Shown: positions 284 through 58,029 of the stretch, one piece after another
How the letters are laid out: each line of letters starts with the position of its first letter
How positions within the stretch are numbered: the stretch's first letter is position 1
IMG/VR virus record: IMGVR_UViG_3300001598_000046
Span: 1-64,000 of that record
Length of the DNA: 64,000 bases
Strand: one strand, 5' to 3'
DNA from: a virus
Taxonomy: Duplodnaviria; Heunggongvirae; Uroviricota; Caudoviricetes
The notes under the pieces: generated by a model
What the model was told of the DNA's origin: nothing
Database searches by the model: none
The model's input: only the letters and a program-made list of their open reading frames with translations
Made by a program: the position numbers and the translations under genes

Positions 284-304
284 ATAGCGCGGTTTATGCG
301 CAAA
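284..304 (+). repeat. GC-rich 21-mer ATAGCGCGGTTTATGCGCAAA (copy 1 of 3)
   Basis: Identical 21-mer at 58009-58029 and near-identical reverse-complement copy at 27567-27591; each sits between a gene stop and a convergent-terminator hairpin. Confidence 0.6.
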
Positions 305-309
305 TTATA

Positions 310-786
310 TTATTGTTTTATTGCAGCTAATATATCTTGTGCCCAATTCCATTTATTGCTGATATATAGTCGCATTCTCACATCAATCATATCAAGTGAT
401 ACGCCAAGCAATGCTTCATCGGTAGAGTAATCAGTTGATTTTTTATCTGAAAACCAAGCGACTCTAAATATTGAACTCATCGATGGTTTTTCGTGTAATA
501 GATGCCAACCCAATTTTGAGAATTTACCTTTGACATTCTCTAAATCCTTCATAATTTTATTATATGATCTTGTTGTGGTTGGGGGTGCTGTATAGGTAAT
601 ATTTATGCCAGTCCCATCCGGAGATGGGGCGATTGATTTTATTTTTATTGATGGAAATATATCTTTCTTAAGTATTGCGATAATATCCGGCTTAAGTTTT
701 TCCATCTTTTTGGCAAGATCTTTTGTATCCTTAATAGTCTTATCTGGTGCCTCAATATCGAGGAGGCTTTCATATAAACTTTTCAT
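310..786 (-). CDS. leader-family protein 1 (N-terminus MKSLYESLLDIEAPDKT), function unknown
   Basis: 158-aa ORF; shares conserved N-terminal leader with 5 other ORFs in the window, rest of protein unrelated. Confidence 0.55.
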   Translation of the reverse strand: MKSLYESLLDIEAPDKTIKDTKDLAKKMEKLKPDIIAILKKDIFPSIKIKSIAPSPDGTGINITYTAPPTTTRSYNKIMKDLENVKGKFSKLGWHLLHEKPSMSSIFRVAWFSDKKSTDYSTDEALLGVSLDMIDVRMRLYISNKWNWAQDILAAIKQ

Positions 787-865
787 CTTGAAGTAAAATA
801 TATCTATATAATGATTTCATTAATAATTGAAGGACCTGACTTAAATATATAATCTCTTAATGGTC

Positions 866-1354
866 TCATTTATAATAATTTAATAATTTTTCAAAAACAT
901 CATAACATAATGACCCATCAAGATCAAATCGTATAAAAACTTTAGTACCATTATGATGCATATATATAATACGCAATGCAAAATTAACCATATGTGTTTT
1001 GGTATTCTCACAATTCCAAAGATATTCATCATAATCTTCGTGGTGCCAATCCTTGAAATATGGTACATATTGATATTGTTTCGAAAATTCACCTTTTATC
1101 TGATTTGCAAATGAACTCAATATATCTTTACGTTGCTGATTTGTAAGTGCATTGGCTTCAAGAATAATACTCTTCGTTGTAATTAATTTTCCATTACCCT
1201 CAAGAGCTACGTGTGCAGTCTTAATATATTTTTTAGGGACTGCAGTTTTATAGATCTCAATAATCTTTTCCTTCTGCAGGTCAAAATCCTTTGCATTACT
1301 CATCGTTTTGTCTGCATATGTAGTACTTAACAGACTTTCATATAATGTTTTCAT
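866..1354 (-). CDS. leader-family protein 2 (N-terminus MKTLYESLLSTTYADKT), function unknown
   Basis: 162-aa ORF directly upstream of family member 1; same leader pattern. Confidence 0.55.
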   Translation of the reverse strand: MKTLYESLLSTTYADKTMSNAKDFDLQKEKIIEIYKTAVPKKYIKTAHVALEGNGKLITTKSIILEANALTNQQRKDILSSFANQIKGEFSKQYQYVPYFKDWHHEDYDEYLWNCENTKTHMVNFALRIIYMHHNGTKVFIRFDLDGSLCYDVFEKLLNYYK

Positions 1355-1381
1355 ACATATATAATAATAAAAGAGTCCCCA

Positions 1382-3142
1382 TTAGGAGACCCTTTTTACT
1401 CTTACATCAAATTTTTCACTCTTGAATAATTTATATTTTGATCTACCTTGGTCAACCAACTTACCTGTTGGAAAATCATCTACCAAATCATATAGGTAGT
1501 ATTTTTCCTTATCATTGGCAAGACAGAGACCACGACCCAAACTTTGCTTATTGATAATTGGTGACTTAAATGATTGCGCAAATACTCCATAATCGAGATT
1601 CTTAAATGTCAACCCGGTACCAACACAACCATAACTTGCAACCAAAATCGCCGCTTTATCATTGAGAAGTTTTTCCTTAATCTGCTCACGTTTCTTATCT
1701 GATGTTTGGCCAGTGATAAGATATATTGGTCTATCAGGGAACCACTCAATAATTCTTGAATGGAGGTATTTGAGATAACTGGTATGATGTGCAAATACGA
1801 TGCAATTCTTTTCGAACCCATTCAATAAATCTCTTAATACTTCCAATCTCTTTTGATCTCGGTGAAGGACCATTTGTTCAAGAAGTAATAAGTTACTACC
1901 ACGATCCTTGCAAAGATCTATATTATAGTTGAGATAATCATCAATTGTGAGTTTATCAGGACCATCATAATCATCTGCAACTCTTTCCTTCATCTCACGG
2001 AGGACCAATGGAAATTCCTTTTCTAACTCGATAGTAAACTCACGCTTCTCAATTGGTAATTTGCGCTCCACCTTTTCACCATTAATCTTATCAACAACGG
2101 TGACACTATTAAGGTACTCGGCACACTTAATATAATTATCGCGTTGTTCATCAGTCATTGGATGAGGGATATAGATTTGAGTAATATCAATTGGAGTGAT
2201 ATATCCACCATCCATCAATTCTTTTGAACGAATATCCTGAATGGTTGGCCCCATTAATGCGTGGCAACAAAATGATTCAATCGTATCCTCAGGTGGTAAT
2301 GAACCAGAGAAACCAAACTTGACTTTGACGTCCTTTATAAATGGTTGCTCGAGAATAGTATTGATAGATTTGCATTTTAGTGTATGCGCTTCATCAACCA
2401 AGATAACATCATAATCATCAAAGAAATGTGGATCATATTTTGCATTGGTTTTATCAGCACGCATTACAAGACTTTGGAATGTTCCGATGGTTAGATTCGA
2501 ACCCTCCTGAAGCTCACCACCAGCCCATACAGTTTCCATCTTAAAGAACTCTGCATAGTCAGTAAAATCTCCAACTGCTTGCTTAACCAATGATTTGGCT
2601 GGAACAATCATTAGGATCTTTTTGGCTCCTTGTTTTTCCATCAAATAACGGAAAACCATATAAGCAACCAAAGTTTTACCAGCACGTGTTGCCAACTGAC
2701 TCAATGATTGACGATATTTGAGGATGAGCCAAGCAGCACGATATTGATATTCATATGGGCAAAGTGATATCTCCCAAGAATTGACATACTCCTTCCACTC
2801 TTCAAAAGACATATTGAATCCTGTGTACTTGAAGTAATTGAATTGTTCAGGAAGTTGGAGAACGATATTCTTTTTTTGACACCACAATTGAATATTCCTC
2901 CACAAACCACTATGGCAGTAGTAGAGGACGCGGCCCATTTTTGTATGTTTCTTTTTTAGGAATATTTCAGGAGTTGGTGTACCCTTAAATGATGGCAAAA
3001 AATGATGAGATGGAATCTTATTGAGAAAATCTTCAAGATTTGGTGTCTTATGTTTCTTACCTTTTTGAGATTGTAATTCTAATTCATCTCCAATAAAGAA
3101 GATGTTACGCATATCATTTGGGTTATACTTAAGCTCTATCAT
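1382..3142 (-). CDS. superfamily-2 DEAH-box DNA helicase
   Basis: Motif I ATRAGKTLVA, motif II ILVDEAHTLK, motif VI-like QSLGRGLCLA; 586 aa. Confidence 0.8.
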   Translation of the reverse strand: MIELKYNPNDMRNIFFIGDELELQSQKGKKHKTPNLEDFLNKIPSHHFLPSFKGTPTPEIFLKKKHTKMGRVLYYCHSGLWRNIQLWCQKKNIVLQLPEQFNYFKYTGFNMSFEEWKEYVNSWEISLCPYEYQYRAAWLILKYRQSLSQLATRAGKTLVAYMVFRYLMEKQGAKKILMIVPAKSLVKQAVGDFTDYAEFFKMETVWAGGELQEGSNLTIGTFQSLVMRADKTNAKYDPHFFDDYDVILVDEAHTLKCKSINTILEQPFIKDVKVKFGFSGSLPPEDTIESFCCHALMGPTIQDIRSKELMDGGYITPIDITQIYIPHPMTDEQRDNYIKCAEYLNSVTVVDKINGEKVERKLPIEKREFTIELEKEFPLVLREMKERVADDYDGPDKLTIDDYLNYNIDLCKDRGSNLLLLEQMVLHRDQKRLEVLRDLLNGFEKNCIVFAHHTSYLKYLHSRIIEWFPDRPIYLITGQTSDKKREQIKEKLLNDKAAILVASYGCVGTGLTFKNLDYGVFAQSFKSPIINKQSLGRGLCLANDKEKYYLYDLVDDFPTGKLVDQGRSKYKLFKSEKFDVRVKRVS

Positions 3143-6542: not shown

Positions 6543-7874
6543 CTAATTTATCTTTGATACCGCATCAAATAATACATCAGGATTAATATTATATTTGACC
6601 TGATTACGCTGCATTTGTTCAATTACTGATTGGAGAATTTGGCTGATACGCGCTATTGATAATCCCTCCTGAGCAGCAATCTCTTTTGGTTCTAATTCAC
6701 GTGGCATACCAATACCAAACTTCTTGAGGAACACTGAACGATCTCTTGGTTTGACACCATCCAATAATTTATCAAGACCATTCTTGAATATATCATATGC
6801 CTCGGCAGCTTCCATATCGGAAACGTGGTCATCCTCCATATTCAATATATCACTAAACTTTGTATCATTATCATCACCGATTGGTGCATCAATATCCAAT
6901 GTCACCTCCTTACGATATGATCCATACTTGAGTTTATCATTATATATATCCGACTTTGGTTTCTTAACCAATCGAGAATAATTATCTATCTCAATCAAGA
7001 TATATGCGCGGATCCACATAAATGCCACAGAGTTGAATGTGGCATTTTTGACATTATGCTTGACCCAAGCAATAACATCATTTCTCATAAATGGTTTCCA
7101 AGTTATTGATGACCAATTTGATGGGATTGGAGTAGCCTCCATATCCTTCAATTCATCATCATTCTTTTGTTCTGTTGATTCGGCAATAGCAATAGATGCG
7201 AAGGCTTTGACAAATTTTTTTCGTATCCCACCATATTTGAGGTATTGTTGGATCTTATTAATAATTTCACCACCATTGGCATTTTCAGGTAATTCCTCCA
7301 ATGCTTCTAACATATCTTCCTTGAGTTTGGCTCTATTTGGATCATATTTTTTGAATGATTCAATCAGGCCATAATTGCCGGCGGAAATAAGTTCCTCCAA
7401 ACTCAAACCCAATCCCTGATATCCTTTGGCAATACTGATAACAGTTTTAAGGTTCATCTCAATAAGTTTATCTCTATTCTCCTCACAATATTCAATATTA
7501 TAGTTATTACCATTCTTATCATATGCCTTACTTACATCACGAAAATATTGTTGTAATGTTCCACGTTCAGCATCAGGGAGCATAGCCTTACTCGTTAATG
7601 CTTCTGCCGCAGAGGATAATGGAATATCATTACTGAGACTATATCTAATAACCGCCGATATATAGAATGATGCATCGGTTTGTGGCTTGAGCTTTATATA
7701 TTTGTTATATGACTCATACAAATCCGGGAGTGAATCAAAAACCGCTTCATTTGTTTTATCTTCATACTCATCAATGAGTTCAACATTGTTCTTCTTTAGA
7801 TTGTCAAACTTCTTCTCAAAAGTTTCATAAACCATCTCATATCTTTCGTATTTTTCATATAACAAATATATCAA
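6543..7874 (-). CDS. RNA polymerase sigma-70 family factor (regions 2 and 4 present, insertion between 2.2 and 2.3)
   Basis: Region 2.2 GNYGLIESFKKYDP; region 2.3/2.4 FNSVAFMWIRAYILIEI..RLVKKP (cf. FSTYATWWIRQAITRAI..RTIRIP); region 4.2 HTH FGIGMP..EIAAQEGLSIARISQILQSVIEQM. Confidence 0.65.
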   Translation of the reverse strand: MIYLLYEKYERYEMVYETFEKKFDNLKKNNVELIDEYEDKTNEAVFDSLPDLYESYNKYIKLKPQTDASFYISAVIRYSLSNDIPLSSAAEALTSKAMLPDAERGTLQQYFRDVSKAYDKNGNNYNIEYCEENRDKLIEMNLKTVISIAKGYQGLGLSLEELISAGNYGLIESFKKYDPNRAKLKEDMLEALEELPENANGGEIINKIQQYLKYGGIRKKFVKAFASIAIAESTEQKNDDELKDMEATPIPSNWSSITWKPFMRNDVIAWVKHNVKNATFNSVAFMWIRAYILIEIDNYSRLVKKPKSDIYNDKLKYGSYRKEVTLDIDAPIGDDNDTKFSDILNMEDDHVSDMEAAEAYDIFKNGLDKLLDGVKPRDRSVFLKKFGIGMPRELEPKEIAAQEGLSIARISQILQSVIEQMQRNQVKYNINPDVLFDAVSKIN

Positions 7875-13518: not shown

Positions 13519-13956
13519 TTATTTAGAGCCCCCATCAAATTCTATGGATTTGAATAGATTGATGACGGCCTTTTCTATGGATTTGAATAGATTGATGACG
13601 GCCTTATATATTGGTTTAATTGGAATCTGCAATAGGTGTAGTGTAATGAACAATACGTTAAACATTGGCACCCACCTCAAAAGAACCGCTACCTCCCAAA
13701 AAGTACAAGCAGATTTTTCTATAACATCATCTGATGAGAATACCTCGTGTAGCGTATATCTGCGACCACACTTCCTCCAGTATGTTAACCAGCAATAAAA
13801 ACTCACAAGTAAGCCAAATACAGGGCTTGTAGCCAGTACTCCAAGGATAATTAAGATTTGTTCTATTGTCATAGTGATATATTTTTGGTACAATATAATA
13901 TATAAAGTATTGTGAGAGTTTTTAGTTCTTACAATTGCAATGTTTTTGCCTGTCAA
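13519..13956 (-). CDS. membrane protein with C-terminal in-frame 11-aa tandem repeat
   Basis: 145 aa; TM-like SPVFGLLVSFYCWLTYW; C-terminus ...KAVINLFKSIEKAVINLFKSIE... Confidence 0.45.
   Translation of the reverse strand: MTGKNIAIVRTKNSHNTLYIILYQKYITMTIEQILIILGVLATSPVFGLLVSFYCWLTYWRKCGRRYTLHEVFSSDDVIEKSACTFWEVAVLLRWVPMFNVLFITLHLLQIPIKPIYKAVINLFKSIEKAVINLFKSIEFDGGSK
13543..13608. repeat. perfect 2 x 33-bp direct tandem repeat
   Basis: tctatggatttgaatagattgatgacggcctt(t/a) twice; in-frame within CDS 13519..13956. Confidence 0.8.
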
Positions 13957-15899: not shown

Positions 15900-17531
15900 A
15901 TGAACTATCGCAATATCAAGAATGTTGGTATGTTATATGAATCAGGTCTAATTCAGCAACCAACACTTAATGAAAAAAAGGCTGAGCCACACCCATCAAA
16001 AGAAAATGAGGAGGCGAAAGTAAAACCACAAGCTGAACATTTTGATGTTGTATATGCTGATGATATCAAAACATATACAAATATCTTCAAGCATATCATT
16101 GTATTCACCAATGATCGTGATGAGAAGAATAATAAAACTCTCAAGAATATCTACGAGGCAGTTGATAATCTTAAGAAAGATAAATGTGAAATTATTCCCG
16201 AAGTTCACGTATTCGTTGCTGCTGAGATGGATGCCGATGAGCGCGAGGAAGAGATCAAAATCACTGATGGTGATGAAACCTTTACCATAAAGGATGAGTC
16301 AAACCTCGATACTCTTATCTTTGCCCGTCTTGGTGTACAGGGAGAGGATCAATGTGAGCATATCGTTCAATTATTGCAAGATCGTGGATTCCTCGTATTG
16401 AATCCAGTTAAGTATTCTGCATTAGCCTGCGATAAGTATGAGTCAGCTGTATTGTTCCAAAAGGGTGAGATTCCTCAACCAAACTTTACTCTTATGACAA
16501 AGGATATCCTTTATGATAAGAAGATATATGATAAGGCGATGAAAGAGGTTTATCCTGAATGGAATCCCGATGATCCTGATAAGAATGAGGAGCTTTCATT
16601 CGTTGTTAAGATTCTTGATGGTCACGGTGGAACAGGTGTTATGATGATTGATGGTAAGAAAATCCTTGCTGCATTCCAACTTATATTTGCAATAGACCCT
16701 GAACGCCGTTTGATTATCCAAAAGAAGGAGGAGGCTGATGGTGGTGATATTCGTGTTCACGTTCTTACACTTCGTGATAAGCAAGTTATTCTTGCTTGTA
16801 TGAAACGTGTTAAGCTTGGTGGTGATTTCCGTTCGAATGTATCTCTTGGTGCACAAGCAGAACCAGTTAAACTCACTCCTGAACAGGAACAGATTGCATT
16901 GAAGACCGCGCAACTCTCACATCTCCCTTGGTGTGCTGTTGATATTATGCCATTGGTTAAGGGATCAAATAAGGAGATTGGTGATAATGTTGTTCTTGAG
17001 ATCAATGCCAGCCCTGGAACAGATGGTATTTCTGATGTAATGAAGGAGAATTTCATTAATATATTACTCAACGAACTTGATGATCCATCACAATTTATGT
17101 TGCAGGATAAAACTGCAGGATTCATAGAATCGGTATCAATCAATTTTGGAAATACCACAAAAGATTTCCTTGCAAAACTTGATACCGGTAACTCCACAAC
17201 AGCATGCTGTCTTGAGGTTGGAGAGTTCTCTGAGAAGAATGGTCAAATCCATTTCAAGATGGATGGAAAAGAGGTATCATTTAAGAAGACAGGTAAATCT
17301 ATTGCGACTGCTGGAGAGCAGAGTTATGAGCGTCCTGTTATTACTGTTCCTGAAATTACTGTTGGTCTTCGTAAAGTTAAGAACGTCCAAATCAGTATCG
17401 TTAAGAGTCGCGAAAATAAAACAACAAACTGCTTGATTAACAGAGATGTATTGAGTAAGCTTGGATATGTTATCCACCCAAATAAGGCTCATATCCTTAC
17501 AAAAGAAATGGAGAAAGTAAAGATTATCTAA
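15900..17531 (+). CDS. RimK-family ATP-grasp alpha-L-glutamate ligase fused to RimB-like retropepsin (DUF785) domain
   Basis: KILDGHGGTGV, DGGDIRVHV, GDFRSNVSLG, TPEQEQIALKTA, VLEINASPGTDGI all parallel E. coli RimK (GDFRSN, TPQEREIAIKAA, VMEVNASPGLEGI); C-terminal AKLDTGNSTTA..ERPVI..LINRDVL matches RimK-associated retropepsin-like family. Confidence 0.85.
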   Translation: MNYRNIKNVGMLYESGLIQQPTLNEKKAEPHPSKENEEAKVKPQAEHFDVVYADDIKTYTNIFKHIIVFTNDRDEKNNKTLKNIYEAVDNLKKDKCEIIPEVHVFVAAEMDADEREEEIKITDGDETFTIKDESNLDTLIFARLGVQGEDQCEHIVQLLQDRGFLVLNPVKYSALACDKYESAVLFQKGEIPQPNFTLMTKDILYDKKIYDKAMKEVYPEWNPDDPDKNEELSFVVKILDGHGGTGVMMIDGKKILAAFQLIFAIDPERRLIIQKKEEADGGDIRVHVLTLRDKQVILACMKRVKLGGDFRSNVSLGAQAEPVKLTPEQEQIALKTAQLSHLPWCAVDIMPLVKGSNKEIGDNVVLEINASPGTDGISDVMKENFINILLNELDDPSQFMLQDKTAGFIESVSINFGNTTKDFLAKLDTGNSTTACCLEVGEFSEKNGQIHFKMDGKEVSFKKTGKSIATAGEQSYERPVITVPEITVGLRKVKNVQISIVKSRENKTTNCLINRDVLSKLGYVIHPNKAHILTKEMEKVKII

Positions 17532-25877: not shown

Positions 25878-26605
25878 TGAATGTTAATGAACTATATGAA
25901 AAGATAAGAAAAGGAGAGATTGACGTAAATAATCAATCTCTCTTCTTCAAAATTTTTATTGAGGGATTTCTCCAATCTCTCAATGATACCATCAAAATTC
26001 GTAACAAAACTATCCCTCATTATATCCCACAAACGGGTGACGAGACTATGATGGTTGAGATTAAAGGGAAAGATGTTACAGCAAATGATACTGAGGTGAC
26101 AAACGAGAATTATATATATTCGGTATCACCTCGTTGTTCAGTCCAACCAAAGGGTATCTCGATTATTGCGGATCAAGTATCAAGCCCATATGCAAATGGT
26201 ACTTTTGAATTTGATTATGAAGATGTCATCGCTATGTTCTCAGCCGAGTTCCGTAGGATACCATTGAAGATGAGTTTTGAACTCACATATCTTGTTGATT
26301 CTTATACTGATTACCTTGAATTGGTTCAACAAATTGTGTCGAAATTACTCTTTATTCGCAATTATTCCATATCATATATGGGGCGTTCAATTGGTTGTTC
26401 ATATCAAGTTCCAACAGATTTTGATGTTGAATATGATGTTGAATTTGACCTTGCGAATCAAGAGGATCGACATAAAAAACTCAATCTTACCATTGAGGTA
26501 GAAACAAACTTCCCAGTATATGCTGGTGAGACGGCAATACCTGCAGATAGAATTATCACCAAATATAAGAGTGATATAATTATAAATGAAAGAACTATAC
26601 AATGA
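25877..26605 (+). CDS. hypothetical protein
   Basis: 242 aa; ATGA start/stop overlap with upstream gene and 4-nt overlap with downstream gene. Confidence 0.45.
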   Translation: MNVNELYEKIRKGEIDVNNQSLFFKIFIEGFLQSLNDTIKIRNKTIPHYIPQTGDETMMVEIKGKDVTANDTEVTNENYIYSVSPRCSVQPKGISIIADQVSSPYANGTFEFDYEDVIAMFSAEFRRIPLKMSFELTYLVDSYTDYLELVQQIVSKLLFIRNYSISYMGRSIGCSYQVPTDFDVEYDVEFDLANQEDRHKKLNLTIEVETNFPVYAGETAIPADRIITKYKSDIIINERTIQ

Positions 26606-27312
26606 AATTAGCAAATGGTGAACTCCGTCCAGGGTTAATCCTCGAAGTATTGGATGGGCAAGGAACAATTCGTGCGGAGGTACCGGGATTATTCTCTGCA
26701 GTTGATAAGGAGAATTTACCACCGATATATCCATTTGCCATTGGTAGCTCAAATTCATTCTCAACACCAAATAAAGGTGATGAGGTTTGGGTACTTTCAT
26801 TTACTGATAATCCTCGAGAATTATATTGGTTCCGCAAAGATAATTTTGCCAAGAATAATGGAGAGGGTAATAAGGGTGGTAAGAAATGTACCGGTGGTGG
26901 TAATATTCAAGACCAAAAGAATGTTGAGGTTTTGATGAGCCGTGAATCAAATGTTGGATACGCAACAATATATTTTTCAGATGGTACCGGTTGGGTTATT
27001 CAAAATCAAGATGCTATTATTGAATTGGGTTGTGATTCAATTCAACTTACAACAAGAATGCCACACGGAACAATTGAGATAACTGAAGATGGGATTTCAT
27101 TGGGAACCGCAGGTGGTTCAGCACATCCAGTACCACACGGTGATAAGGTAGAAAAATTATTTGATAATATTATATCAACATTTCGAAAGATCTCGGAGGC
27201 AGCAAAAACAAATCCATATACTGCAGCACTTTCTCCAGTTATTGATACTGCAATTGCAAATTTCGAAAATGATCCTTCATATATAAGTTCTAATTATGTT
27301 ACGGTAGATTAA
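26602..27312 (+). CDS. baseplate spike / gpV-gp5 OB-fold family protein
   Basis: GTIRAEVPGLFSAVDKENLPPIYPFAIGSS..PNKGDEVWVLSFTDNP matches N-terminal OB-fold pattern of P2 gpV / T4 gp5 / VgrG; 236 aa similar to P2 gpV size. Confidence 0.55.
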   Translation: MKLANGELRPGLILEVLDGQGTIRAEVPGLFSAVDKENLPPIYPFAIGSSNSFSTPNKGDEVWVLSFTDNPRELYWFRKDNFAKNNGEGNKGGKKCTGGGNIQDQKNVEVLMSRESNVGYATIYFSDGTGWVIQNQDAIIELGCDSIQLTTRMPHGTIEITEDGISLGTAGGSAHPVPHGDKVEKLFDNIISTFRKISEAAKTNPYTAALSPVIDTAIANFENDPSYISSNYVTVD

Positions 27313-27566: not shown

Positions 27567-27591
27567 TTTCGCGCATAAACCGCGCTATAAT
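27567..27591 (-). repeat. GC-rich motif ATAGCGCGGTTTATGCGCGAAA, reverse-complement copy (2 of 3)
   Basis: Plus strand reads tttcgcgcataaaccgcgctataat; lies between stop of 27314..27556 and hairpin 27598..27636. Confidence 0.6.
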
Positions 27592-39464: not shown

Positions 39465-39932
39465 ATGAAATCATTAATTGAAAGTCTTTTGGATGCTGGT
39501 GTGGCTGATAAAACTTTGGATAAAAATATCAAGAATTTTGAAGAGGTAATGTATATCCGCGAGTTGGTTCATAAATATCTTTACGAGCCAACTATTGGTT
39601 TTTCTTACGATGTTACCCCTAAAACCGGTGGTTCTCATTGGTTTAATGAAGAATATGGTGAATATACCATCAAGATGAAAGTTAGTGAACTTAACAGATT
39701 ATATCGTTTAATGGGAAGAGAATTATTGCAACATTTTGGTCAAGATAAGATGCTGGTCGAATTAGATTCTGAACGCGGTGTCAGATATGTTCTTGAATTT
39801 AGATTCAAGATGTTTGAAAAATGTGATAGAAATGGTTGTCTCCCATATCCTAATATAAAAGTGATAATTGCAAAGAACAGTATGGGTAAAATGTTCACAT
39901 ACGTAAAACTACCAAAATTCTTTATACAATGA
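39465..39932 (+). CDS. leader-family protein 3 (N-terminus MKSLIESLLDAGVADKT), function unknown
   Basis: 155 aa; conserved leader, unrelated body. Confidence 0.55.
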   Translation: MKSLIESLLDAGVADKTLDKNIKNFEEVMYIRELVHKYLYEPTIGFSYDVTPKTGGSHWFNEEYGEYTIKMKVSELNRLYRLMGRELLQHFGQDKMLVELDSERGVRYVLEFRFKMFEKCDRNGCLPYPNIKVIIAKNSMGKMFTYVKLPKFFIQ

Positions 39933-42451
39933 TAAAATTTATTGACATAAATACTCGTCATACATATAATGGTGATAAACCGTATGTTCATTGGTTTGAT
40001 GGCCAACAAAGTACTGGCCTAATCTACACCAAAAACCTCTATATCCTTTCGGACAAGGCATCACTTAATATTAGTATTCCACAAAATGATATTTTCCATC
40101 TTCTTGATATTACGAATATGGAAGAAGTTATTATAGATGGTTTTGATTATAAGGATATTACAAAAATGTACAAGAATAACTTGACATTAACTGGAGTAGC
40201 TTATGATTCAACTCATTATATTTATGTAGTATATCTTGCTTGTAGTAGTTCGATGGCTCTTGAAGCTCGTGAAGATGTTACCATTGATAATGCAGCTTAT
40301 ACCATTGGTGCCGACTTTTTTGCAGAACGTGAAGAGCTCAAAATAAATATTGCCAATCAAGGTTGCGAGATACCCGAAACAATCCAACGCGCTATCTATG
40401 ATAGTGATGTACACGAAGAGATGATGGATAATATCCTCCTCAATCGTAAGTATAAAGAATTGATGATGAATTTCATTGATATTGTTGGAAATAAAGGTTC
40501 GTATAAATCACTTCTCAATTCTCTTAATTGGTTCGAATATGGTGATCTTCTCAAACTCCACGAATTTTGGAAACATACTGAGTGGGGTAGAGTAATATAT
40601 AATGATCAAGATTTTTGCCAAGTATTGAGAGATAAGATGGATAATATCCTCGTCAATTTCTCAAAGACTACATATATGGGTATTTATTGTGCGATGGAAA
40701 GAGAAACAGGTAACCTCGATCCAATTGAGATTTTAGACCATCAGGAACAATTCTTACCTGAGCCAATACCCGAGCTCGAAATGATTATATTTAAGTGGTC
40801 TATTAATGAGATGGCATTGAAGATGACATTACTTGGTAACTTTTTCGAAACATACTTTATGCCAATCCATACAGACCTTATTCATAGTACTCTTGAGGAT
40901 ATAGTATATACAGATTCAGTTAAGTTGATACCGGGTGGGCAAATGAGACGTGAAGATTATGTAATCCATAATATTCCTGTTATTTGCAACGTAAAAGATG
41001 GTGATTGTTTTGTATTGGAGAATGCTGAAACTCGCGTTGAACCCGATACACATTTTGTTACTGAAACTGATGATTATATGAAGCATACCATATTTGGTAT
41101 TAACGATGTTGCTGTTTCAGGTATGGGTGCAGTATCTAATGATTTTGTCAAGAAATTCTATCTCAATAGATATAATGGTATCGGTGTCATCATACCATTT
41201 GAATTTGAGATGGATGCCTGTGATGATGATATTATTTTTCGTGAAGATTTCGCACTTCGTAGTGATGCAACACTCCAATGGGAGCACCTTATCTTTACTG
41301 AGAAATATGCTGCGGTTGATGGTAAATTTAAGATCAAATTCAATTTACTTGTCACTCACGACTACGAATATGATCTCCGTGTGATATTCCGCTCAAATTG
41401 TGGAAATATTTATATTAAGAGAGTCAAATTCAATGTAATAGATATAAGACGTTCATTATTATCTATTTATAAGATTATGCCAAATCTTGATAATAAAGAG
41501 TATCATAATAATGATTTTATGTTCAAGCACTATAATGGATATAGTGATGGATTCCCTTATATCTTACCAGTGGTATTCTCAACATATTATACTTACCATA
41601 AATATTTCATACCATATAATCCAAATATTGATGAAAATTATGGAGTTAAGCTTAAACAACTCATCTCAATATATGGTAAATATATGATAAATAGTAAATT
41701 CGAATCTCTTGATGGTTTGGTTGATACGGCATTACGGCAGCTCCCACTCGATGATAATACAATCACGGCACAGAAAATTTACAATGCAAAGGGTTTACCT
41801 GCAGGAATAACACAACACGATAGAGATCTTATTATGGGTATAACTATATATTTGAGTTATCCTGAAAATTCAAAATTAACGAGATCGTGGGTATATTTAT
41901 GCAAATATTATACAAGATATCGTAAAGAGAAATTTGTACAGGATGCGAGTGGAGAATGGAAACCAACGGATGGTCTCCCATCATTCTATACATTTATCGC
42001 CGATTCATTTGCAACTCGAGATGGTTGTACTTTACCATTCCCAAATAATATTATTAATGATCTTGAACAATATTTTCTAAAGATCTACAATATCAAACAC
42101 GTCTTAGTTCGCAATGAACTTGTATATATTCCATTTGACCACCACCTTGAACCACTTAATCGTGAAACGATAGAGGGCCTTACAATTAATGAAGATGAAA
42201 CACTTTGTGTGATACCTGATATCAAATATCTCAAACGTATTACCGAACACGAATGGGTATTCCATAATGCATCAACAGGACACGATTATATTATGCCAAC
42301 AATCAAAGAACCATTTGTGGCATCAAAAGATCCAAATTATCCAATTCTTGATCCAGGGTATTACGATATCATATTCAGATATAAATTGGCGACAAATGCG
42401 GATACAATTCACGAAATTTGTCTCAAGAGTGCATTTATTCAACGCGCATAA
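39929..42451 (+). CDS. large hypothetical protein (candidate tail fibre/baseplate distal component)
   Basis: 840 aa; last gene of plus-strand structural block. Confidence 0.45.
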   Translation: MIKFIDINTRHTYNGDKPYVHWFDGQQSTGLIYTKNLYILSDKASLNISIPQNDIFHLLDITNMEEVIIDGFDYKDITKMYKNNLTLTGVAYDSTHYIYVVYLACSSSMALEAREDVTIDNAAYTIGADFFAEREELKINIANQGCEIPETIQRAIYDSDVHEEMMDNILLNRKYKELMMNFIDIVGNKGSYKSLLNSLNWFEYGDLLKLHEFWKHTEWGRVIYNDQDFCQVLRDKMDNILVNFSKTTYMGIYCAMERETGNLDPIEILDHQEQFLPEPIPELEMIIFKWSINEMALKMTLLGNFFETYFMPIHTDLIHSTLEDIVYTDSVKLIPGGQMRREDYVIHNIPVICNVKDGDCFVLENAETRVEPDTHFVTETDDYMKHTIFGINDVAVSGMGAVSNDFVKKFYLNRYNGIGVIIPFEFEMDACDDDIIFREDFALRSDATLQWEHLIFTEKYAAVDGKFKIKFNLLVTHDYEYDLRVIFRSNCGNIYIKRVKFNVIDIRRSLLSIYKIMPNLDNKEYHNNDFMFKHYNGYSDGFPYILPVVFSTYYTYHKYFIPYNPNIDENYGVKLKQLISIYGKYMINSKFESLDGLVDTALRQLPLDDNTITAQKIYNAKGLPAGITQHDRDLIMGITIYLSYPENSKLTRSWVYLCKYYTRYRKEKFVQDASGEWKPTDGLPSFYTFIADSFATRDGCTLPFPNNIINDLEQYFLKIYNIKHVLVRNELVYIPFDHHLEPLNRETIEGLTINEDETLCVIPDIKYLKRITEHEWVFHNASTGHDYIMPTIKEPFVASKDPNYPILDPGYYDIIFRYKLATNADTIHEICLKSAFIQRA

Positions 42452-42482
42452 AAAAATGGCCAACATCAAGTTGGCCATTTTT
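42452..42482. terminator. bidirectional hairpin terminator
   Basis: AAAAATGGCCAAC atcaa GTTGGCCATTTTT between convergent genes. Confidence 0.55.
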
Positions 42483-48774: not shown

Positions 48775-48815
48775 AGTCTATAGGTGAAGGAGTTTTGGTT
48801 TATCTCCCTTACATC

Positions 48816-50255: not shown

Positions 50256-50900
50256 TTATGCTTTATGCTTGATTCTAAATTGTTTCCAATAATTGAGAAT
50301 TGCCGCGCGTGTACTCTTTCGGAAGACTCCCTCCGTGAATACTGCGCGAACCCAATCTTTTGGAGGAACAACGCGGATGGCACCGGTCAAATTTGGTATA
50401 TACATACGCACTCCAAATGCCAAACCAGTATTCTCCAACTGCTGCATCAACCACTCATAATCGAATCTTGACATTTCTTTATTCAATCCAGTCTCCCAAG
50501 TCTTCAGGTACATTGGTTTCCAAATCTCCATAATACGATCCATAATTTGGTATCGAATACGTGGTGGATAATAATGGATATTGAATCCAATGATGCGTGG
50601 TTCACCCTTTTGATTCTTAAATGTACCAAAGAAGATCGTACAAGGTTTTGCATCATAATATTCAAGTTCCTCCTTTGTTGCTGGCTCAAGATAATTGAAG
50701 TATATAAGTTGGCCCGGCATAACATCACGGGGTCCAGTAACCTCGAGATTCTCCTCAAGATATTTACGTTGGCGTCTATCACGGAGCTCAGGAGAATGCT
50801 TATATTCTTTGAATGCCCTTATCTCTCGTATGAGGGAATAATTTTTATCCGGTTTCTCACTTTTTGGAGTAACCTTTTTTTCATTACTGGTTGTTGCCAT
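50256..50900 (-). CDS. hypothetical protein downstream of terminase
   Basis: 214-aa basic ORF overlapping terL stop by 17 nt. Confidence 0.45.
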   Translation of the reverse strand: MATTSNEKKVTPKSEKPDKNYSLIREIRAFKEYKHSPELRDRRQRKYLEENLEVTGPRDVMPGQLIYFNYLEPATKEELEYYDAKPCTIFFGTFKNQKGEPRIIGFNIHYYPPRIRYQIMDRIMEIWKPMYLKTWETGLNKEMSRFDYEWLMQQLENTGLAFGVRMYIPNLTGAIRVVPPKDWVRAVFTEGVFRKSTRAAILNYWKQFRIKHKA

Positions 50901-52746
50901 AAGATGTCAATCTATTTAGATTTGCATTTTGAATCCGTTGCATATCGTTATCAAAATCATACCACGTTTCAATTGGTACTGCACCCACACCAACCTGTGG
51001 TGTATAGTTTTCGTATGGATTATATGTTTCTTCGTCAAATGGTTTGCCAATTTTCTCCTCAAAATCTTCGATAAAGAGTTTATATTGAAGTGTTTTCTTA
51101 ACAAATTCAAGCTGAACTGTTGACATTACCATATCATCGTGGCCAAATGATGCTTTATAATGTTTTGTTCCATCATCACAGAAATTTTCAAGTTCAAATA
51201 TAAACATTTCTGCATCATTACGAATGAAATCTCGTTCATAATCTTCCTGAAATAGAAGGCAATGTGGTGTTTTGTTTCCAGATGTAAGTTTTATACCTTG
51301 CACATATTTTGTACCACCCTCATTATAATACTTAACGAGGCAGTTAATATCAAAGTTTTCGAAACCTTTTGCGTTGGTCAAATCCTTAATATCTCTTATA
51401 AATAATTCACCATAAGTATTATACTCAATTGAAATGAGAGTATGATCATTATTGGCATAAAGGTTCATTACCTGCATTAATGATAATGCATATTCGTCTC
51501 GTGGCACCTGATTTGATCTGAAATACCCAACAGCCACCAAACGTGGACCATATTTACCTTTTTCCATACGATATATAGTCATTACTGTATAGTCTCCACC
51601 CAATCCTTCAGCGATATCAACTGGAATAACAATAAACTCTTTTCGAAGATCGGTCATTGGATTAAAGTCAGGATGCCAAAACCAACAATCAGAATGGAAT
51701 ACACCAAGCATCTCTTTATTGACAAATTTGATTGCATCATCACGGCGAGCACGGAGAATAGCACGTTTTATCAAAGCACTTGATGTAACATCAAAATTAA
51801 TACCAAATTGACCCTCAAATGCCTCCTCAGAACCATAGTTTGCAATCATACGTTGATGCCAAGCCTCATCACGTGGTTCGAAACATTGTTTCTTTGGATT
51901 CCACTCCGGTACATCTTTCCACTCAACCGCAAATGGCGCATAGTCATTCTCACCTAACTTGGCACCCATATATAATCTATAAAAAAGTTCCTTTCCATTT
52001 ACCGTACTCGAAATCATTACACGTGCTGCTGCAGCGGTAAGAGTTGGAAGTACGTGATTATAGAATGGTTCCTGAATATTCTTCTTAATTTTTGCAAACT
52101 CATCGAGTAATGCGCAATGGAATGTAAATGAAATACCGGAATCCATCGTTGTTGCATCAGCCATACAACGACAGCCATTATCCAATACAATCTCACCCTC
52201 ATTCCACTTCTCAACACCAGGTTTGAGGAAGAATGGTATCTCATAAAATATCTTCTTAACCTTATCCAAAATTTCAATCGCAGTCTTGCGTTTATTACCA
52301 AGAACCAACGCATTCTTATCATAATTGAATAAGATATAATGTAACATAAAAATCGCTGATGTGGTGGTCTTACCAGCCTGACGGCAGGAAACCATAATAC
52401 TCATATTATGATCTTCAAGATGTTTGAGATAACGCTTCTGATAATCACGCAGTTGGACATGTTTAATACCCTTTGGTGTCATCAATTTGCAATACTTTTC
52501 AGCGAAATATAATATATTTTTTCTACACTTGAGCCACTCAATTTTTTCTTCATCTGTACGTGTGAATACCAAATTACATTTGAGGATTTTGGTATTGTTC
52601 TCATAAAATGGATTGGCAACAAGTCTCTTACCTTCATCGAGTCCCTTCAGGGCTATATCAAGGACTTCGGTGGTCCACACAACTCTGCGGGCTTTCGCTC
52701 CATCCTTTTCCTCTTTGATAGGATTAAATGCCTGTTTTTTAGCCAT
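50884..52746 (-). CDS. terL: terminase large subunit
   Basis: Walker A SCRQAGKTTTS (cf. T4 gp17 SRQLGKT), Walker B ALLDEFAKI, C-terminal nuclease-sized domain; 620 aa. Confidence 0.85.
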   Translation of the reverse strand: MAKKQAFNPIKEEKDGAKARRVVWTTEVLDIALKGLDEGKRLVANPFYENNTKILKCNLVFTRTDEEKIEWLKCRKNILYFAEKYCKLMTPKGIKHVQLRDYQKRYLKHLEDHNMSIMVSCRQAGKTTTSAIFMLHYILFNYDKNALVLGNKRKTAIEILDKVKKIFYEIPFFLKPGVEKWNEGEIVLDNGCRCMADATTMDSGISFTFHCALLDEFAKIKKNIQEPFYNHVLPTLTAAAARVMISSTVNGKELFYRLYMGAKLGENDYAPFAVEWKDVPEWNPKKQCFEPRDEAWHQRMIANYGSEEAFEGQFGINFDVTSSALIKRAILRARRDDAIKFVNKEMLGVFHSDCWFWHPDFNPMTDLRKEFIVIPVDIAEGLGGDYTVMTIYRMEKGKYGPRLVAVGYFRSNQVPRDEYALSLMQVMNLYANNDHTLISIEYNTYGELFIRDIKDLTNAKGFENFDINCLVKYYNEGGTKYVQGIKLTSGNKTPHCLLFQEDYERDFIRNDAEMFIFELENFCDDGTKHYKASFGHDDMVMSTVQLEFVKKTLQYKLFIEDFEEKIGKPFDEETYNPYENYTPQVGVGAVPIETWYDFDNDMQRIQNANLNRLTSYGNNQ

Positions 52747-56109: not shown

Positions 56110-56110
56110 T

Positions 56111-56974
56111 ATGAAATCACTTTACGAAAGCTTACTCGGTATCACAAATGATGATATTGATAAAACAAACCTGAAACTTCTATGGAATCAATTACAATTG
56201 GATATTAAGGGTACGGAGAAAAAACCACGTATTAATTTTCTACAAATCAAAAATAATAATGCTGGAGAACTCTCCTGTTATTGCTCAATTCCACAAGGGA
56301 GATTGGGTAGAGGCCCACAAATTGATGATATACCAAGTTTAACAAAACTTTTTCCTGCTGGTATTGAAGCAAAAAGATTACAAATTAGTAAAAATTGTGA
56401 TCATAAATTATCTGAACTTGCGGCACTTAATATCAAAGTAAACGAATATAAGATTGATGGTTACGATACTGAGGAAAGTTTAGCAAAATTGGATATTCAA
56501 GTACCATCAGTATACTGTGATGCCGCTGCACTTATCACAGATAATTTACTTCAACGAATATCCAAATATACCGACAAGATTAGACTTGATGCTTGTATGG
56601 AATTTCACGGTTGGAGAAAAATGGAAGATTTGAAGAAATTATCTAATTGTCCATTTGATGTTATGATCATTAATAAAGGTGCATATCTTTTTGGATTGGA
56701 TCAACCAAGAAAAAATACTGTGACAATCGGAGATTACCTTGAAGGTCATCTTAATATTAATGGAACTCCAAGAGAGGGGCAATTTGTATATCGTGATAGT
56801 TCTCAGCAACAACATTATAATGGGTTTAAGAGTAAACTTGCCGATTGGATTAAACGAAATCCAAAAACAACTCTTATAATGAGTTGGGGTGGTACAATGG
56901 AAAAAATTTCATTGGACTCAAAGGGTGAACTCACCACAACAAAAATAACCGATCGAGAAATTAATAAATTATGA
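56111..56974 (+). CDS. leader-family protein 4 (N-terminus MKSLYESLLGITNDDIDKT), function unknown
   Basis: Start ATG 1 nt after stop of upstream gene (ORF track extends it upstream to 56060 in the same frame). Confidence 0.55.
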   Translation: MKSLYESLLGITNDDIDKTNLKLLWNQLQLDIKGTEKKPRINFLQIKNNNAGELSCYCSIPQGRLGRGPQIDDIPSLTKLFPAGIEAKRLQISKNCDHKLSELAALNIKVNEYKIDGYDTEESLAKLDIQVPSVYCDAAALITDNLLQRISKYTDKIRLDACMEFHGWRKMEDLKKLSNCPFDVMIINKGAYLFGLDQPRKNTVTIGDYLEGHLNINGTPREGQFVYRDSSQQQHYNGFKSKLADWIKRNPKTTLIMSWGGTMEKISLDSKGELTTTKITDREINKL

Positions 56975-57162
56975 AAAGCCTTTATGAAAGTTTATTAGGA
57001 TCTACTGAAGATACAATTGATACCACGAATAAGAAATATGCAGAATATGTAGATTTCTGTGATAAATCAAAAGAATTGTATGATGCCTTTTGGTCTGAAT
57101 TTGAACACAAGGCCATCAAACTCGGTATAGCCAAACGAGACTTCAATAATAGTACGATATAA
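56971..57162 (+). CDS. leader-family protein 5, short (N-terminus MKSLYESLLGSTEDTIDTT)
   Basis: 63 aa; ATGA overlap with member 4; possibly truncated. Confidence 0.4.
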   Translation: MKSLYESLLGSTEDTIDTTNKKYAEYVDFCDKSKELYDAFWSEFEHKAIKLGIAKRDFNNSTI

Positions 57163-57164
57163 CT

Positions 57165-57350
57165 GAGGAGCAAGATGTATTTATCCATGCATATCCTTGC
57201 CTTCTTACCAATATTAAACTTTATAATATTGATCTTGGTAAAGATGATTCGATTAAAGAATCGTTAAAATACGTAACAAAAAACAAAAATATTATAATCA
57301 ACGACCTTGCACGTCCAATGGAAAGTGGTCTTGGTTATGCAGTAAAATAA
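57165..57350 (+). pseudogene. start-less duplicated fragment of the 3' end of gene 54397..56109
   Basis: Translates TEEQDVFIHAYPCLLTNIKLYNIDLGKDDSIKESLKYVTKNKNIIINDLARPMESGLGYAVK vs gene C-terminus TEEQDMFIQAYPCLLTNIKLYNIDLGREGAIKESLKYVTQHKNIIINDLARPIESGQGYTAR; no in-frame start. Confidence 0.5.
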
Positions 57351-57352
57351 TT

Positions 57353-57871
57353 ATGAAATCTCTTATAGAAAGTATTTTGGATTCAAATCTTGCTGACAAA
57401 GGTACGATCAGTGCTGAAAAGGCTCAAAAGGCAATGAGCATAATTCGTGACGTTTTTGAAAAATTGCTTAATACCGACAAATTCACAATAGAAGTTTGGA
57501 TACCGGAACAACCTGATAAAGTTCGTGGTGTTATGAAATATAAATTCAACGCAAGTGCTCCTAACGATACTAAAAATGACTATATTGAGCAGAGAAAATA
57601 TTATCAAGAAGTCATTGTCAGTAGTGTCAAGGAACTGAAAAAGATGAATAAGTATCTCGACATGGATCCTCAGGAGGCATATAGTAGCCGCCCATACGAG
57701 AACAGAAATTTGTTTTTGACCAACTCACAACCAATAGTCAACTACACGGATTCAATGATTAGTGTAATGGGTAACTCCAATAGTGATTTTTTCGATATGT
57801 TAGTTGGTGATTGCTTCGTATCTACCCTTGAAGAAGTAATTAAAAAGAATAAAAAGATCATAATTCATTGA
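57353..57871 (+). CDS. leader-family protein 6 (N-terminus MKSLIESILDSNLADKGT), function unknown
   Basis: 172 aa; start 2 nt after stop of the pseudogene fragment, mirroring junction at 56109/56111. Confidence 0.55.
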   Translation: MKSLIESILDSNLADKGTISAEKAQKAMSIIRDVFEKLLNTDKFTIEVWIPEQPDKVRGVMKYKFNASAPNDTKNDYIEQRKYYQEVIVSSVKELKKMNKYLDMDPQEAYSSRPYENRNLFLTNSQPIVNYTDSMISVMGNSNSDFFDMLVGDCFVSTLEEVIKKNKKIIIH

Positions 57872-57960
57872 TTAGTAAAACAAAAGATGGACGAGTAGTC
57901 ATTTTTGATTGGTTCGATCCATATTATTATAATGGATAAAATTCTCTCATATTTCGAATA

Positions 57961-57999
57961 AAATGGGCTGGCCTTCATAGTTGTAAGGCCAGCCCATTT
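57961..57999. terminator. bidirectional hairpin terminator
   Basis: Perfect 15-bp inverted repeat AAATGGGCTGGCCTT catagttgt AAGGCCAGCCCATTT between convergent genes. Confidence 0.6.
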
Positions 58000-58008
58000 G
58001 AATTGAAT

Positions 58009-58029
58009 ATAGCGCGGTTTATGCGCAAA
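58009..58029 (+). repeat. GC-rich 21-mer ATAGCGCGGTTTATGCGCAAA (copy 3 of 3)
   Basis: Identical to 284-304; followed by partial echo GCGATGTTTATGCGTGC. Confidence 0.6.

Follow-up and report, generated by a model that had tools for sequence, protein, structure and literature searches.

A 21-nucleotide motif beside bidirectional terminators at convergent operon ends of an uncultivated phage

The 21-mer ATAGCGCGGTTTATGCGCAAA, which occurs three times in the window (the whole stretch of 64,000 nucleotides of phage DNA that was analysed), is not a free-standing element. It is the most strongly preserved segment of a cassette that is reused at operon ends and has a two-way terminator at its centre. 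Our preferred reading, which we hold tentatively at a probability of roughly 0.4, is that the 21-mer is a box recognized by its sequence, within a bidirectional-terminator cassette that is shared across the phage family and was copied from junction to junction. The lineage comprises uncultivated phages of approximately 157 kb that encode a T4-type terminase, a DNA polymerase of family B and a sigma factor of their own, and the terminase search alone returned more than 1,400 relatives. The non-coding DNA of uncultivated phages offers few signals that can be read, repeated regulatory cassettes among them, and the cassette described here marks operon ends, not operon starts.

The motif and its junctions in the window

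A motif scan located exact copies of the 21-mer at 284-304 (+) and 58009-58029 (+), as well as a reverse-complement copy. The original prediction had reported the same three copies, and had placed an indel in the third, at 27567-27591; the scan showed one substitution (ATAGCGCGGTTTATGCGCGAA), no indel and a span of 27568-27588. The assumption of roughly 30% GC was likewise replaced by a measured value of 36.7% G+C for the window, and the claim that the identity was very unlikely by chance was upheld, with zero occurrences expected at up to three mismatches in 100 dinucleotide-preserving shuffles. Scanning the window with six mismatches allowed returned no further credible copy, and there were no stray 21-mers at random positions. 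The 21-mer can be read as two tandem 11-nt boxes, CGCGCATAAAC and CGCGCTATAAT, in direct orientation and spaced by one helical turn (11 bp), so that both lie on the same helix face. The features are as follows.

284..304, minus strand: motif copy 1, 5 nt past the stop (310-312) of gene 310..786; in gene sense TTTGCGCATAAACCGCGCTAT
271..307, minus strand: core common to copies 1 and 3, 37 nt, 33/37 positions identical; beyond it no significant similarity
195..240, no strand: hairpin at junction 1, a bidirectional terminator unrelated to the other hairpins
212-228, minus strand: half-motif ATAACCGCGCTTAAAAT, located by inspection of the sequence within the 195-240 hairpin loop
27554..27667, plus strand: cassette W2, with the box pair, a 9-nt spacer, hairpin 27598-27636 (loop ACAGTTATG) and an inverted degenerate box
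27568..27588, plus strand: motif copy 2, 11 nt past the stop (27554-27556) of gene 27314..27556; TTCGCGCATAAACCGCGCTAT
27570-27580 and 27581-27591, plus strand: boxes CGCGCATAAAC and CGCGCTATAAT, respectively, at copy 2
27634-27651: inverted degenerate box of W2, TTTTATGCGAAATATGAG
42441..42482, plus strand: fourth junction, single box AACGCGCATAAAA overlapping the stop of gene 39929..42451
57930..58043, minus strand: cassette W3, an inverted copy of W2, with hairpin 57961-57999 (plus-strand loop CATAGTTGT)
57946-57962: degenerate box of W3, CTCATATTTCGAATAAA
58009..58029, minus strand: motif copy 3, 11 nt past the stop (58041-58043) of gene 58041..58580, an AAA_28 / nucleotide-kinase-like gene

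The predicted order of gene stop, motif and hairpin held at all three sites, every one of which lies between convergent genes. At site 1, the stop (310-312, minus strand) is followed by a 5-nt gap, the motif, a 43-nt gap and the hairpin at 195-240. Sites 2 (stop 27554-27556, plus strand; hairpin 27598-27636) and 3 (stop 58041-58043, minus strand; hairpin 57961-57999) share gaps of 11 nt before the motif and 9 nt after it. Copies 1 and 3 differ in strand from copy 2, yet all three are read in the sense of the adjacent gene. The window contains about six convergent junctions: three carry the full motif, and the fourth carries a single box (CGCGCATAAAA) that abuts the hairpin at 42452-42482. The stem of this hairpin is related to the W2 stem, and the junction has a positional counterpart in the relative L157.

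The four large hairpins have stems of 13-15 bp with A and T tracts on both sides, lie between convergent genes and have the make-up of bidirectional intrinsic terminators; no strand asymmetry consistent across the sites was found. As the original prediction had noted, the hairpins at 27598-27636, 57961-57999 and 42452-42482 are mutually related and the one at 195-240 is not. The 21-mer itself does not qualify as a terminator by the combination of a stable stem and a U tract. In the mRNA of the adjacent gene, all three copies are predicted to form a mini-hairpin, GCGC-AUAAACC-GCGC, with a stem of only 4-5 bp and a loop of 7 nt, followed 3' by an A run on one strand and UAUAAU/UAUUUU on the other. 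A terminator-scan match at 287-301 is followed by AAATTATATT, a weak T tract.

The possibility that the motif merely belonged to a recently copied segment with identical flanks was borne out in part. Copies 2 and 3 do lie inside a duplication, since W2 and W3 form a 114-nt inverted repeat of 77% identity, but the 21-mer is identical at 20/21 positions and the flanks at only about 73%. Copies 1 and 3 agree at 21/21 motif positions and their flanks are unrelated. A stable 21-mer amid the diverged W2 and W3, together with a perfect copy 1 within unrelated flanks, therefore points to constraint and not to recent copy-paste. The stems of W2 and W3 carry compensatory changes, and their loop cores are flipped (AGTT in W2, AACT in W3). 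The comparison shows a stem that evolves by compensation while box and loop stay fixed. Flank conservation could partly reflect the role of the A/U tracts in the terminator.

Distribution of the cassette among relatives

Convergent junctions of the distant relatives L075, L073 and L157 share the first box, the hairpin loop AGTTAT/AACTAT and, beyond the hairpin, the degenerate inverted box, and a similarly built cassette is present in L072 and L074. A 16-mer, TATTTCGCGCATAAAC, is identical in L075, where it lies 7 nt past a stop and ahead of a hairpin at a syntenic operon end; the synteny is based on a 230-aa gene of L075 that is 37% identical to window gene 26602..27312. At the same position L073 carries the variant GCGCAAAAAC, and the far-side flank GATATGAGAG is kept in both. 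The loop TAGTT/AACTA is retained in L075, L073, L072, L074 and L157 despite entirely different stems. The first box thus persists at the corresponding operon end between phages with a protein identity of just 35-37%, and only this first half of the 21-mer is old. Across 853 kb of DNA from the family, the pattern GCGCAWAAAC was counted seven times, with 6/7 occurrences intergenic, against about two expected overall by our own estimate. Duplication of the cassette to a second junction was also observed in L072/L074 and in L073.

The distribution is patchy. At junction 2 of the closest sampled relatives, L003 and L004 (58% and 63% identity in the neighbouring 1024-aa protein), the motif is absent and a plain terminator or a different sequence is found instead; the box is therefore dispensable or patchily inherited. 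It is also absent from junction 2 of L067-L071 and L076. In L072, a box-like element beside the syntenic gene is flipped (GCGCGTTTTTATGCG), and in L069 a box pair, with the boxes 22 bp apart, lies between co-directional genes beside a TATAAATA, so neither position nor orientation of the box is universal. Searches of three public collections returned no other phage with the exact motif. When 185,579 species genomes were scanned with an 18-mer, 19 single matches resulted, all in unrelated GC-rich coding DNA, with no related copies.

A proposed role at operon ends and its alternatives

According to the preferred reading, a composite cassette of about 100 nt would close convergent operons, with the 21-mer as its most conserved block. 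The layout runs from the gene stop through the box, a short A/T spacer, the long hairpin and the degenerate inverted box to the stop of the converging gene. The long hairpin, with its A and T tracts, is an intrinsic terminator of the two-way type and retains AGTTAT/AACTAT in its loop. In this phage, one side of the cassette carries the box twice in tandem, the pair constituting the 21-mer, and the whole cassette or its 37-nt core has been copied onto other convergent junctions. A putative phage or host factor would recognize the box and act with the terminator at operon ends. Its most likely role would be an efficient, direction-specific stop at the junction, possibly by a pause or roadblock on the DNA or by a factor bound to the nascent 3' UTR. 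The freely evolving stem with a fixed loop and box across relatives of about 35% identity suggests a dedicated factor at convergent junctions. If this is true, the cassette would help to delimit transcription units in a widespread family.

An alternative that we consider unlikely but credible is a structural RNA element: a small GC-clamped stem-loop upstream of the terminator, of which the shape and not the sequence matters, acting as a pause hairpin or as a 3'-end stability or processing element. The mini-hairpin is predicted in 3/3 copies and would always be transcribed ahead of termination. In L072, CGCG-CAAAACT-CGCG-TATAAA lies 2 nt past two stop codons and ahead of terminators, with all four pairs swapped, the pairing kept and the loop AAAC in common; a regular expression for a GC 4-bp hairpin followed by TATW matched these five sites and no others across 331 kb of DNA from the family. 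However, both GCGC and CGCG are self-complementary, so this apparent covariation is not independent evidence, and the L072 hairpin is on the opposite side of the cassette as judged by flank homology. The positional orthologues in L075 and L073 retain the first arm and loop (GCGCATAAAC) but lack the second arm and form no hairpin. A four-bp stem is also marginal, and the large hairpins display no consistent strand asymmetry. Rfam gave zero matches at gathering thresholds across the whole window. Lenient Rfam scans of the three sites gave sub-threshold matches only, driven by the terminator hairpin; the best of these, the sRNA model STnc240 (30.2 bits versus a gathering threshold of 55), does have a small-hairpin-plus-terminator architecture.

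There is a similar minority chance that the 21-mer has no function of its own and is a by-product of the spread of a palindromic cassette by duplication, short-tract gene conversion or quasi-palindrome template switching, in the manner of a low-copy selfish or recombinogenic MITE/REP or PeSL element. The 21-mer is part of a duplicated palindromic module, it resembles a tandem duplication of an 11-nt unit, and cassette duplications have occurred in three other lineages. The inversion of the W2/W3 loop core fits template switching, and the patchy distribution among relatives and the location of two sites beside members of a six-member paralogue family, as in plastic regions, are equally in line with it. 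What this explanation accounts for poorly is that the 21-mer is far better kept than the rest of the cassette and that copy 1 retains it amid unrelated flanks. It is also hard to explain without constraint why 16 nt are identical in L075 at the matching operon end when the proteins are about 37% identical. No target-site duplication was seen, no transposase was present among the scanned window ORFs and no copies were found in host-like genomes. If the box were functionless, the sites would still provide a clear case of palindromic terminator modules duplicating, flipping and decaying within phage genomes.

More far-reaching, and in our view doubtful, is the proposal that the junction cassette is a previously undescribed protein-dependent insulator/terminator system or a tiny structured-RNA gene common to this large family of approximately 157-kb uncultivated phages. 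Its loop and boxes would then be read by a dedicated phage factor controlling convergent transcription, and the 21-mer would be a binding site doubled in the present lineage.

A DNA-level site apart from transcription, such as a T5-type nick site, a replication origin iteron, a gyrase/topoisomerase site or a recombination site, is improbable. T5 nicks at GCGC-containing sequences, the two direct GC boxes 11 bp apart share one helix face (22 bp in L069), the motif is located where positive supercoils build up between convergent operons, and the copies are dispersed at intervals of 27-30 kb. The copies are, however, on different strands and always in gene sense, which argues for transcription rather than for one DNA strand. 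Within the window we identified no nickase, initiator or recombinase, a 151-aa TnsA-fold protein matched head-completion proteins, and GC skew was uninformative.

Quite improbable is a transcription start element, with the box as part of a promoter either for a transcript antisense to the 3' end of the neighbouring gene or for a very short RNA made up of the conserved-loop hairpin. In gene sense, the second GCGC is followed by TATAAT, TATATT or TATTTT; in the opposite sense, ATATAG lies beside the box (TATAAATA in L069). A promoter-like region of L155 reads TATAGGCGCGG, and stems that covary around a conserved loop would be in keeping with a small structured RNA. The sequence (T/C)ATATTT(C/G) resembles the -7 element TAnnTTTG of Bacteroidota, a consensus that may not be that of the host. 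Nevertheless, the phage's own promoter pattern ACTAAA-N14-17-TATAWATA (six cassettes, two operon starts) has no match at the motif, sigma-70-type spacing does not fit (the best TTGCGC to TATAAT distance is 11 nt), a downstream gene is absent in both directions and no Rfam family was matched.

Comparison with known systems

The stoperators of Cluster A mycobacteriophages are 13-mers that occur more than 20 times per genome, also serve as promoter operators, are bound by the L5 gp71-type immunity repressor of temperate phages and are proposed to stop elongating RNA polymerase (PMC9283540). The motif resembles them as an asymmetric sequence in short intergenic spaces near stops whose orientation follows transcription (3/3 copies in the sense of the adjacent gene, 5-11 nt past its stop, three sites being too few for strong statistics). 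In contrast to stoperators, it has just three copies in 64 kb, none at a promoter and all at operon ends beside intrinsic terminators, and there is no sign of a temperate lifestyle; a stoperator identity was rejected on copy number and location. Searches with Pfam and PHROG of 27 selected ORFs of the 64-kb window gave no repressor or integrase match, most small ORFs being matchless.

Lambdoid nut sites consist of boxA and boxB and are read on the nascent RNA, as with nutR between cro and tR1. They lie near the operon start, and polymerase reads through downstream terminators into further genes; boxB has a 5-bp stem and a GNRA-like pentaloop and is bound by an N-type protein. The motif likewise pairs a short linear box with a small hairpin whose stem is GC and whose loop is rich in A, located between the stop codon of a gene and an intrinsic terminator. 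It is rejected as a nut site, being the last element of its operon, with the next gene convergent, a stem of 4 bp and a loop of 7 nt. Antitermination is disfavoured because read-through would run antisense into the converging gene. Among the candidate functions listed by the original prediction, a protein-binding site or 3'-UTR element is retained, antitermination is unlikely, and a packaging or homing signal gained no support.

REP/BIME and MITE-like repeats (e.g., Correia) are present in tens to hundreds of copies in bacterial chromosomes, can terminate transcription or stabilise mRNA, and get copied to new sites. MITEs have inverted termini with target duplications, and REPs have a dedicated transposase. 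The cassette is similarly an imperfect palindromic module situated outside genes, just beyond the 3' ends of convergent pairs. With 2-4 copies, no target duplication flanking any of the three sites, no related copies in the scanned species genomes and no transposase in the scanned ORFs, this class was rejected, palindromic structure being the one defining trait in common. Any Rfam family was rejected as well, with nothing reaching the gathering threshold.

The PeSL/PmSL elements of T4-like phages are composite terminator-promoter cassettes (Arbiol et al. 2010, PMC2839356; Comeau et al. 2014, PMC4122927). A PeSL combines a stem-loop, a sigma-70-like -35/-10 promoter, a Shine-Dalgarno sequence and a start codon between co-directional genes (PMC2839356; PMC4122927). 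Both are short stem-loop cassettes repeated intergenically in large myovirus-type genomes, with variable stems and conserved flanking motifs, and both are tied to variable genes and are possible recombination points; the motif cassette shows the same repetition at several intergenic sites. Unlike a PeSL, it lacks a promoter and lies between the two stop codons of convergent genes, and its GC-rich box is missing from PeSLs. A PeSL identity was rejected, as both cassette sides end in stops and there is neither a correctly spaced promoter nor ACTAAA-N14-17-TATAWATA. If the preferred reading is true, the cassette would be a termination-side counterpart to the promoter-side PeSL cassettes. The true PeSL analogue in the window is a different repeat family (6329-6400 and others).

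The 21-mer and its position at gene ends

The GC-rich 21-mer is a real, non-random feature of the window, in which three copies were located by pattern search. The two copies expected to be exact were borne out, whereas the reverse-complement copy, reported in the original prediction to contain an indel, actually carries one substitution. The G+C content, assumed to be approximately 30%, was measured at 36.7%. The proposed order of gene stop, motif and hairpin was confirmed against the ORF list at all three sites.

Motif copies, flanking elements and other convergent gene ends
284-304, motif copy 1, exact ATAGCGCGGTTTATGCGCAAA; site 1: stop of 310..786 (-), 5 nt, motif, 43 nt, hairpin 195-240
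27568-27588, motif copy 2, reverse complement with one substitution; site 2: stop of 27314..27556 (+), 11 nt, motif, 9 nt, hairpin 27598-27636
58009-58029, motif copy 3, exact ATAGCGCGGTTTATGCGCAAA; site 3: stop of 58041..58580 (-), 11 nt, motif, 9 nt, hairpin 57961-57999
212-228, half-copy of the motif in the loop of the unrelated junction-1 hairpin
42452-42482, hairpin related to the cassette hairpins, adjoined by a single box
12129-12160 and 18311-18340, convergent junctions with a plain terminator

Sequences with up to three mismatches to the 21-mer were absent from 100 dinucleotide-preserving shuffles, and a Hamming scan of the window allowing six mismatches yielded no further credible copy. 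All three sites are flanked by convergent genes, and the motif always has the sense of the nearer gene. The window contains approximately six convergent junctions, with the full motif at three, a single box (one 11-nt unit of the 21-mer) at one and a plain terminator at two.

Anatomy of the cassette

The concern that the motif might belong to a larger duplicated segment was justified for two of the three copies. The repeat finder placed copies 2 and 3 within a 114-nt inverted repeat (27554-27667 and 57930-58043, hereafter W2 and W3; 77% identical), but copy 1 shares with copy 3 only the stretch 271-307, with 33 of 37 positions identical. A resemblance between the upstream flank of copy 1 and the hairpin loop of copy 3 was not significant, as 101 of 2000 shuffles scored equally well. 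Within the 114-nt repeat, the motif itself is identical at 20 of 21 positions, and the stems differ by compensatory changes (GGGCTGGCC/GGCCAGCCC in W2 versus GGCCAACC/GGCTGGCC in W3). Beyond each hairpin, on the side away from the motif, the first half of the motif recurs in inverted, degenerate form (CTCATATTTCGCATAAAA in W2, CTCATATTTCGAATAAA in W3, compared with CTTATATTTCGCGCATAAAC on the motif side); thus, the basic unit consists of a box, a hairpin and an inverted box. Since a second GC block follows the box on the motif side, the 21-mer reads as tandem 11-nt units, CGCGCATAAAC and CGCGCTATAAT. As GCGC is self-complementary, it can equally be folded into a hairpin of 4 bp that encloses a 7-nt loop.

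Flank-to-flank pairing of a lower stem amounted to 12 bp in W2, was weaker in W3 and was absent in the related locus L075 (paired by hand), so the lower stem was rejected as a conserved part of the cassette. Among 12 hairpins, neither folding energy nor the number of G-U pairs revealed a consistent strand preference. Hairpins of different lineages would not align in register for a covariance model. At the gathering threshold, Rfam returned no family for the window; the best lenient matches, all below threshold (STnc240 at 30 bits versus 55, and miRNA precursors), reflect generic hairpins.

The cassette among related phages and its possible function

The window, which is phage DNA, has genes for a family B DNA polymerase (32749..35748), a large terminase of the T4 type (50884..52746) and a sigma factor (6543..7874), as well as for helicases, a baseplate wedge protein and an RNA ligase; no tRNA genes were found in it. 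No GenBank phage matched an 8-kb query at the DNA level by megablast, and the identity of the polymerase to known phage polymerases does not exceed 25%. Protein searches led to a large family of uncultivated phages, whose complete-looking contigs measure 157-160 kb. Logan contigs of run SRR1221442 match the window at 100% identity, and one JGI contig does so at 99.9%; exact-protein look-ups matched the same phage only (99.9-100% identity), and the next-nearest relative reaches only approximately 63% identity in conserved proteins. IMG/VR protein searches with two motif-adjacent genes returned nothing.

The exact motif was absent from all the relatives fetched, i.e., 10 IMG/VR records taken at the neighbouring 1024-aa gene and a further 32 taken at the terminase. 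Its 18-mer had no match in IMG/VR; metagenome contigs yielded 39 and species genomes 19, each a single hit in coding DNA of unrelated origin, most of it GC-rich. The 57 IMG/VR matches to the 15-mer core were likewise unrelated to the window; the matches in these three public collections were only chance occurrences in unrelated DNA. Of the closest relatives, L003 has a plain terminator at junction 2, and L004 has another sequence there that continues to the contig end. Twelve bases identical to the far-side flank of the cassette, TAATGGATAAAA, open an ORF in L004; an origin of this flank as a gene-start remnant was rejected, as a search of the window turned up no homologue of that ORF.

Parts of the cassette were recognisable in more distant loci. 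L075 carries a 16-mer identical to that of the window, TATTTCGCGCATAAAC, 7 nt past a stop; a long hairpin with loop TTAGTTAT comes next, and then GATATGAGAG. This operon end is syntenic, its 230-aa gene being 37% identical to window gene 26602..27312. In L073, the variant GCGCAAAAAC occupies this position, and another cassette, inverted, lies at a distance of 11 kb. L072 and L074 share another version, present at two junctions each; in L072 it includes CGCG-CAAAACT-CGCG-TATAAA, 2 nt past the stop codons, and a scan with the L072 19-mer matched only its own contig, twice. A short HMM of the box was too weak for significance (best E = 1.9); its L157 lead was then confirmed by eye as TCATATTTGCGATATAAC and a hairpin with AACTAT in the loop, 8.6 kb beyond the terminase gene, a position similar to that of the 42452 junction. 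The stems are unrelated across lineages (GGCC, GCGATCG and GATCTCC types), the loop TAGTT/AACTA is kept in the relatives and W3 (AGTTAT in W2), and the boxes are still recognisable. Family DNA totalling 853 kb contains seven instances of the string GCGCAWAAAC, six of these intergenic, against approximately two expected overall by our own estimate. There were two exceptions. In L072, the box-like element that lies beside the syntenic gene is flipped. In L069 (20964-21075), a box-like pair (GCGCATAAAC and TTTCGCGCAAAA, 22 nt apart) is located between co-directional genes, directly adjoining TATAAATA and approximately 50 nt upstream of a start codon, a context unlike that of the terminator cassettes.

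These comparisons establish a family-wide terminator cassette at convergent junctions that has been repeatedly duplicated within genomes. They also show that its stem covaries freely and that its loop and box are under sequence constraint. Only the lineage of the window has the second half of the 21-mer, and the L075 and L073 orthologues lack the hairpin that this half creates. This pattern favours a box that would be read as sequence, present here twice at a distance of one helical turn, over an RNA hairpin that acts purely by its structure. The orientation, always in gene sense, and the placement between stop and terminator point to transcription. In our working model, a phage or host factor that helps to close the operon would recognise the box, either as DNA or in the nascent 3' UTR; hairpin folding, equally good for the two strands, favours neither. 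The description that fits the feature best is that of a repeated regulatory cassette of a phage, unusual in lying at operon ends and in how well its box and loop are conserved. A recombination-driven origin, in which the motif would have no function, is kept as a live rival, and the patchy distribution of the motif among relatives speaks for it. Antitermination is unlikely, since a polymerase reading through would transcribe the converging gene in antisense. The same holds for a promoter: the phage's own presumed pattern is absent, no sigma-70 spacing fits and no gene lies downstream.

Nut sites, REP/BIME elements and MITEs each have at least one defining feature that the cassette lacks. The cassette resembles PeSLs in being a repeated stem-loop unit, but a PeSL by definition also has a promoter and, downstream, a start codon (PMC2839356, PMC4122927), and neither was found when the cassette was tested for them. 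It shares asymmetry, intergenic position and orientation with transcription with stoperators, which differ in copy number, use at promoters and dependence on a temperate-phage repressor (PMC9283540).

A second repeat family and other features

A second repeat family in the window resembles PeSLs and is distinct from the motif cassette.

Copies of the second repeat family and two further genes
6329-6400, 18961-19066, 29572-29618, 45597-45668, 48791-48862 and 63168-63214 (-), repeat copies
upstream of 22803 and of 52862 (+), ACTAAAC and a TATA-rich box
29638..31143 (-), SPFH/flotillin-like protein (Band_7 and Flot domains)
15900..17531 (+), RimK-type ATP-grasp enzyme

Each of the six repeat copies comprises a terminator hairpin with a variable stem and the conserved loop ACTAAA(G/T)GTTT, followed by TTTGTTATATATA and a conserved leader, GTAGGAGAT(A/C)CAAACCAACCC. 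Two plus-strand operons are preceded by ACTAAAC and then a TATA-rich box (TATAATATA before 52862, TATAAAGA before 22803). The pattern ACTAAA-N14-17-TATAWATA is probably the phage's own promoter, perhaps serving the phage sigma factor. GC-clamped mini-hairpins and GGAGATC leaders are also present at promoters in the phage family; the intergenic region 1509-1638 of L155 contains a GCGC-TCTAT-GCGC mini-hairpin, ACTAAAC, TATAGGCGCGGCGGAGATCGCGC and ATATAGCGC before the start codon. The starts at 22803, 35847, 52862 and 15900 have A/T-rich leaders without a Shine-Dalgarno sequence, which would fit a Bacteroidota host.

Six paralogous ORFs, 310..786 (-), 866..1354 (-), 39465..39932 (+), 56111..56974 (+), 56971..57162 (+) and 57353..57871 (+), share the start MKSL(Y/I)ES(L/I)L(D/G) and diverge thereafter. 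Two members of this group lie beside motif sites 1 and 3, and a PHROG scan of five of the six gave no match. The L-x-E near their N-terminus is reminiscent of the capsid-targeting/prohead-protease motif of T4 internal proteins. L073 has a similar paralogue family, starting with MKHISESI. A 199-nt direct repeat (55912-56110 and 57153-57351, 79% identical) has an MKSL paralogue directly downstream of each copy; one copy forms the 3' end of a 570-aa gene and the other is intergenic. An exact 33-nt tandem duplication at 13540-13605 in ORF 13519..13956 (-) would encode an in-frame 11-residue repeat. The G+C content rises to approximately 0.44 around 12-14 kb and 30-32 kb.
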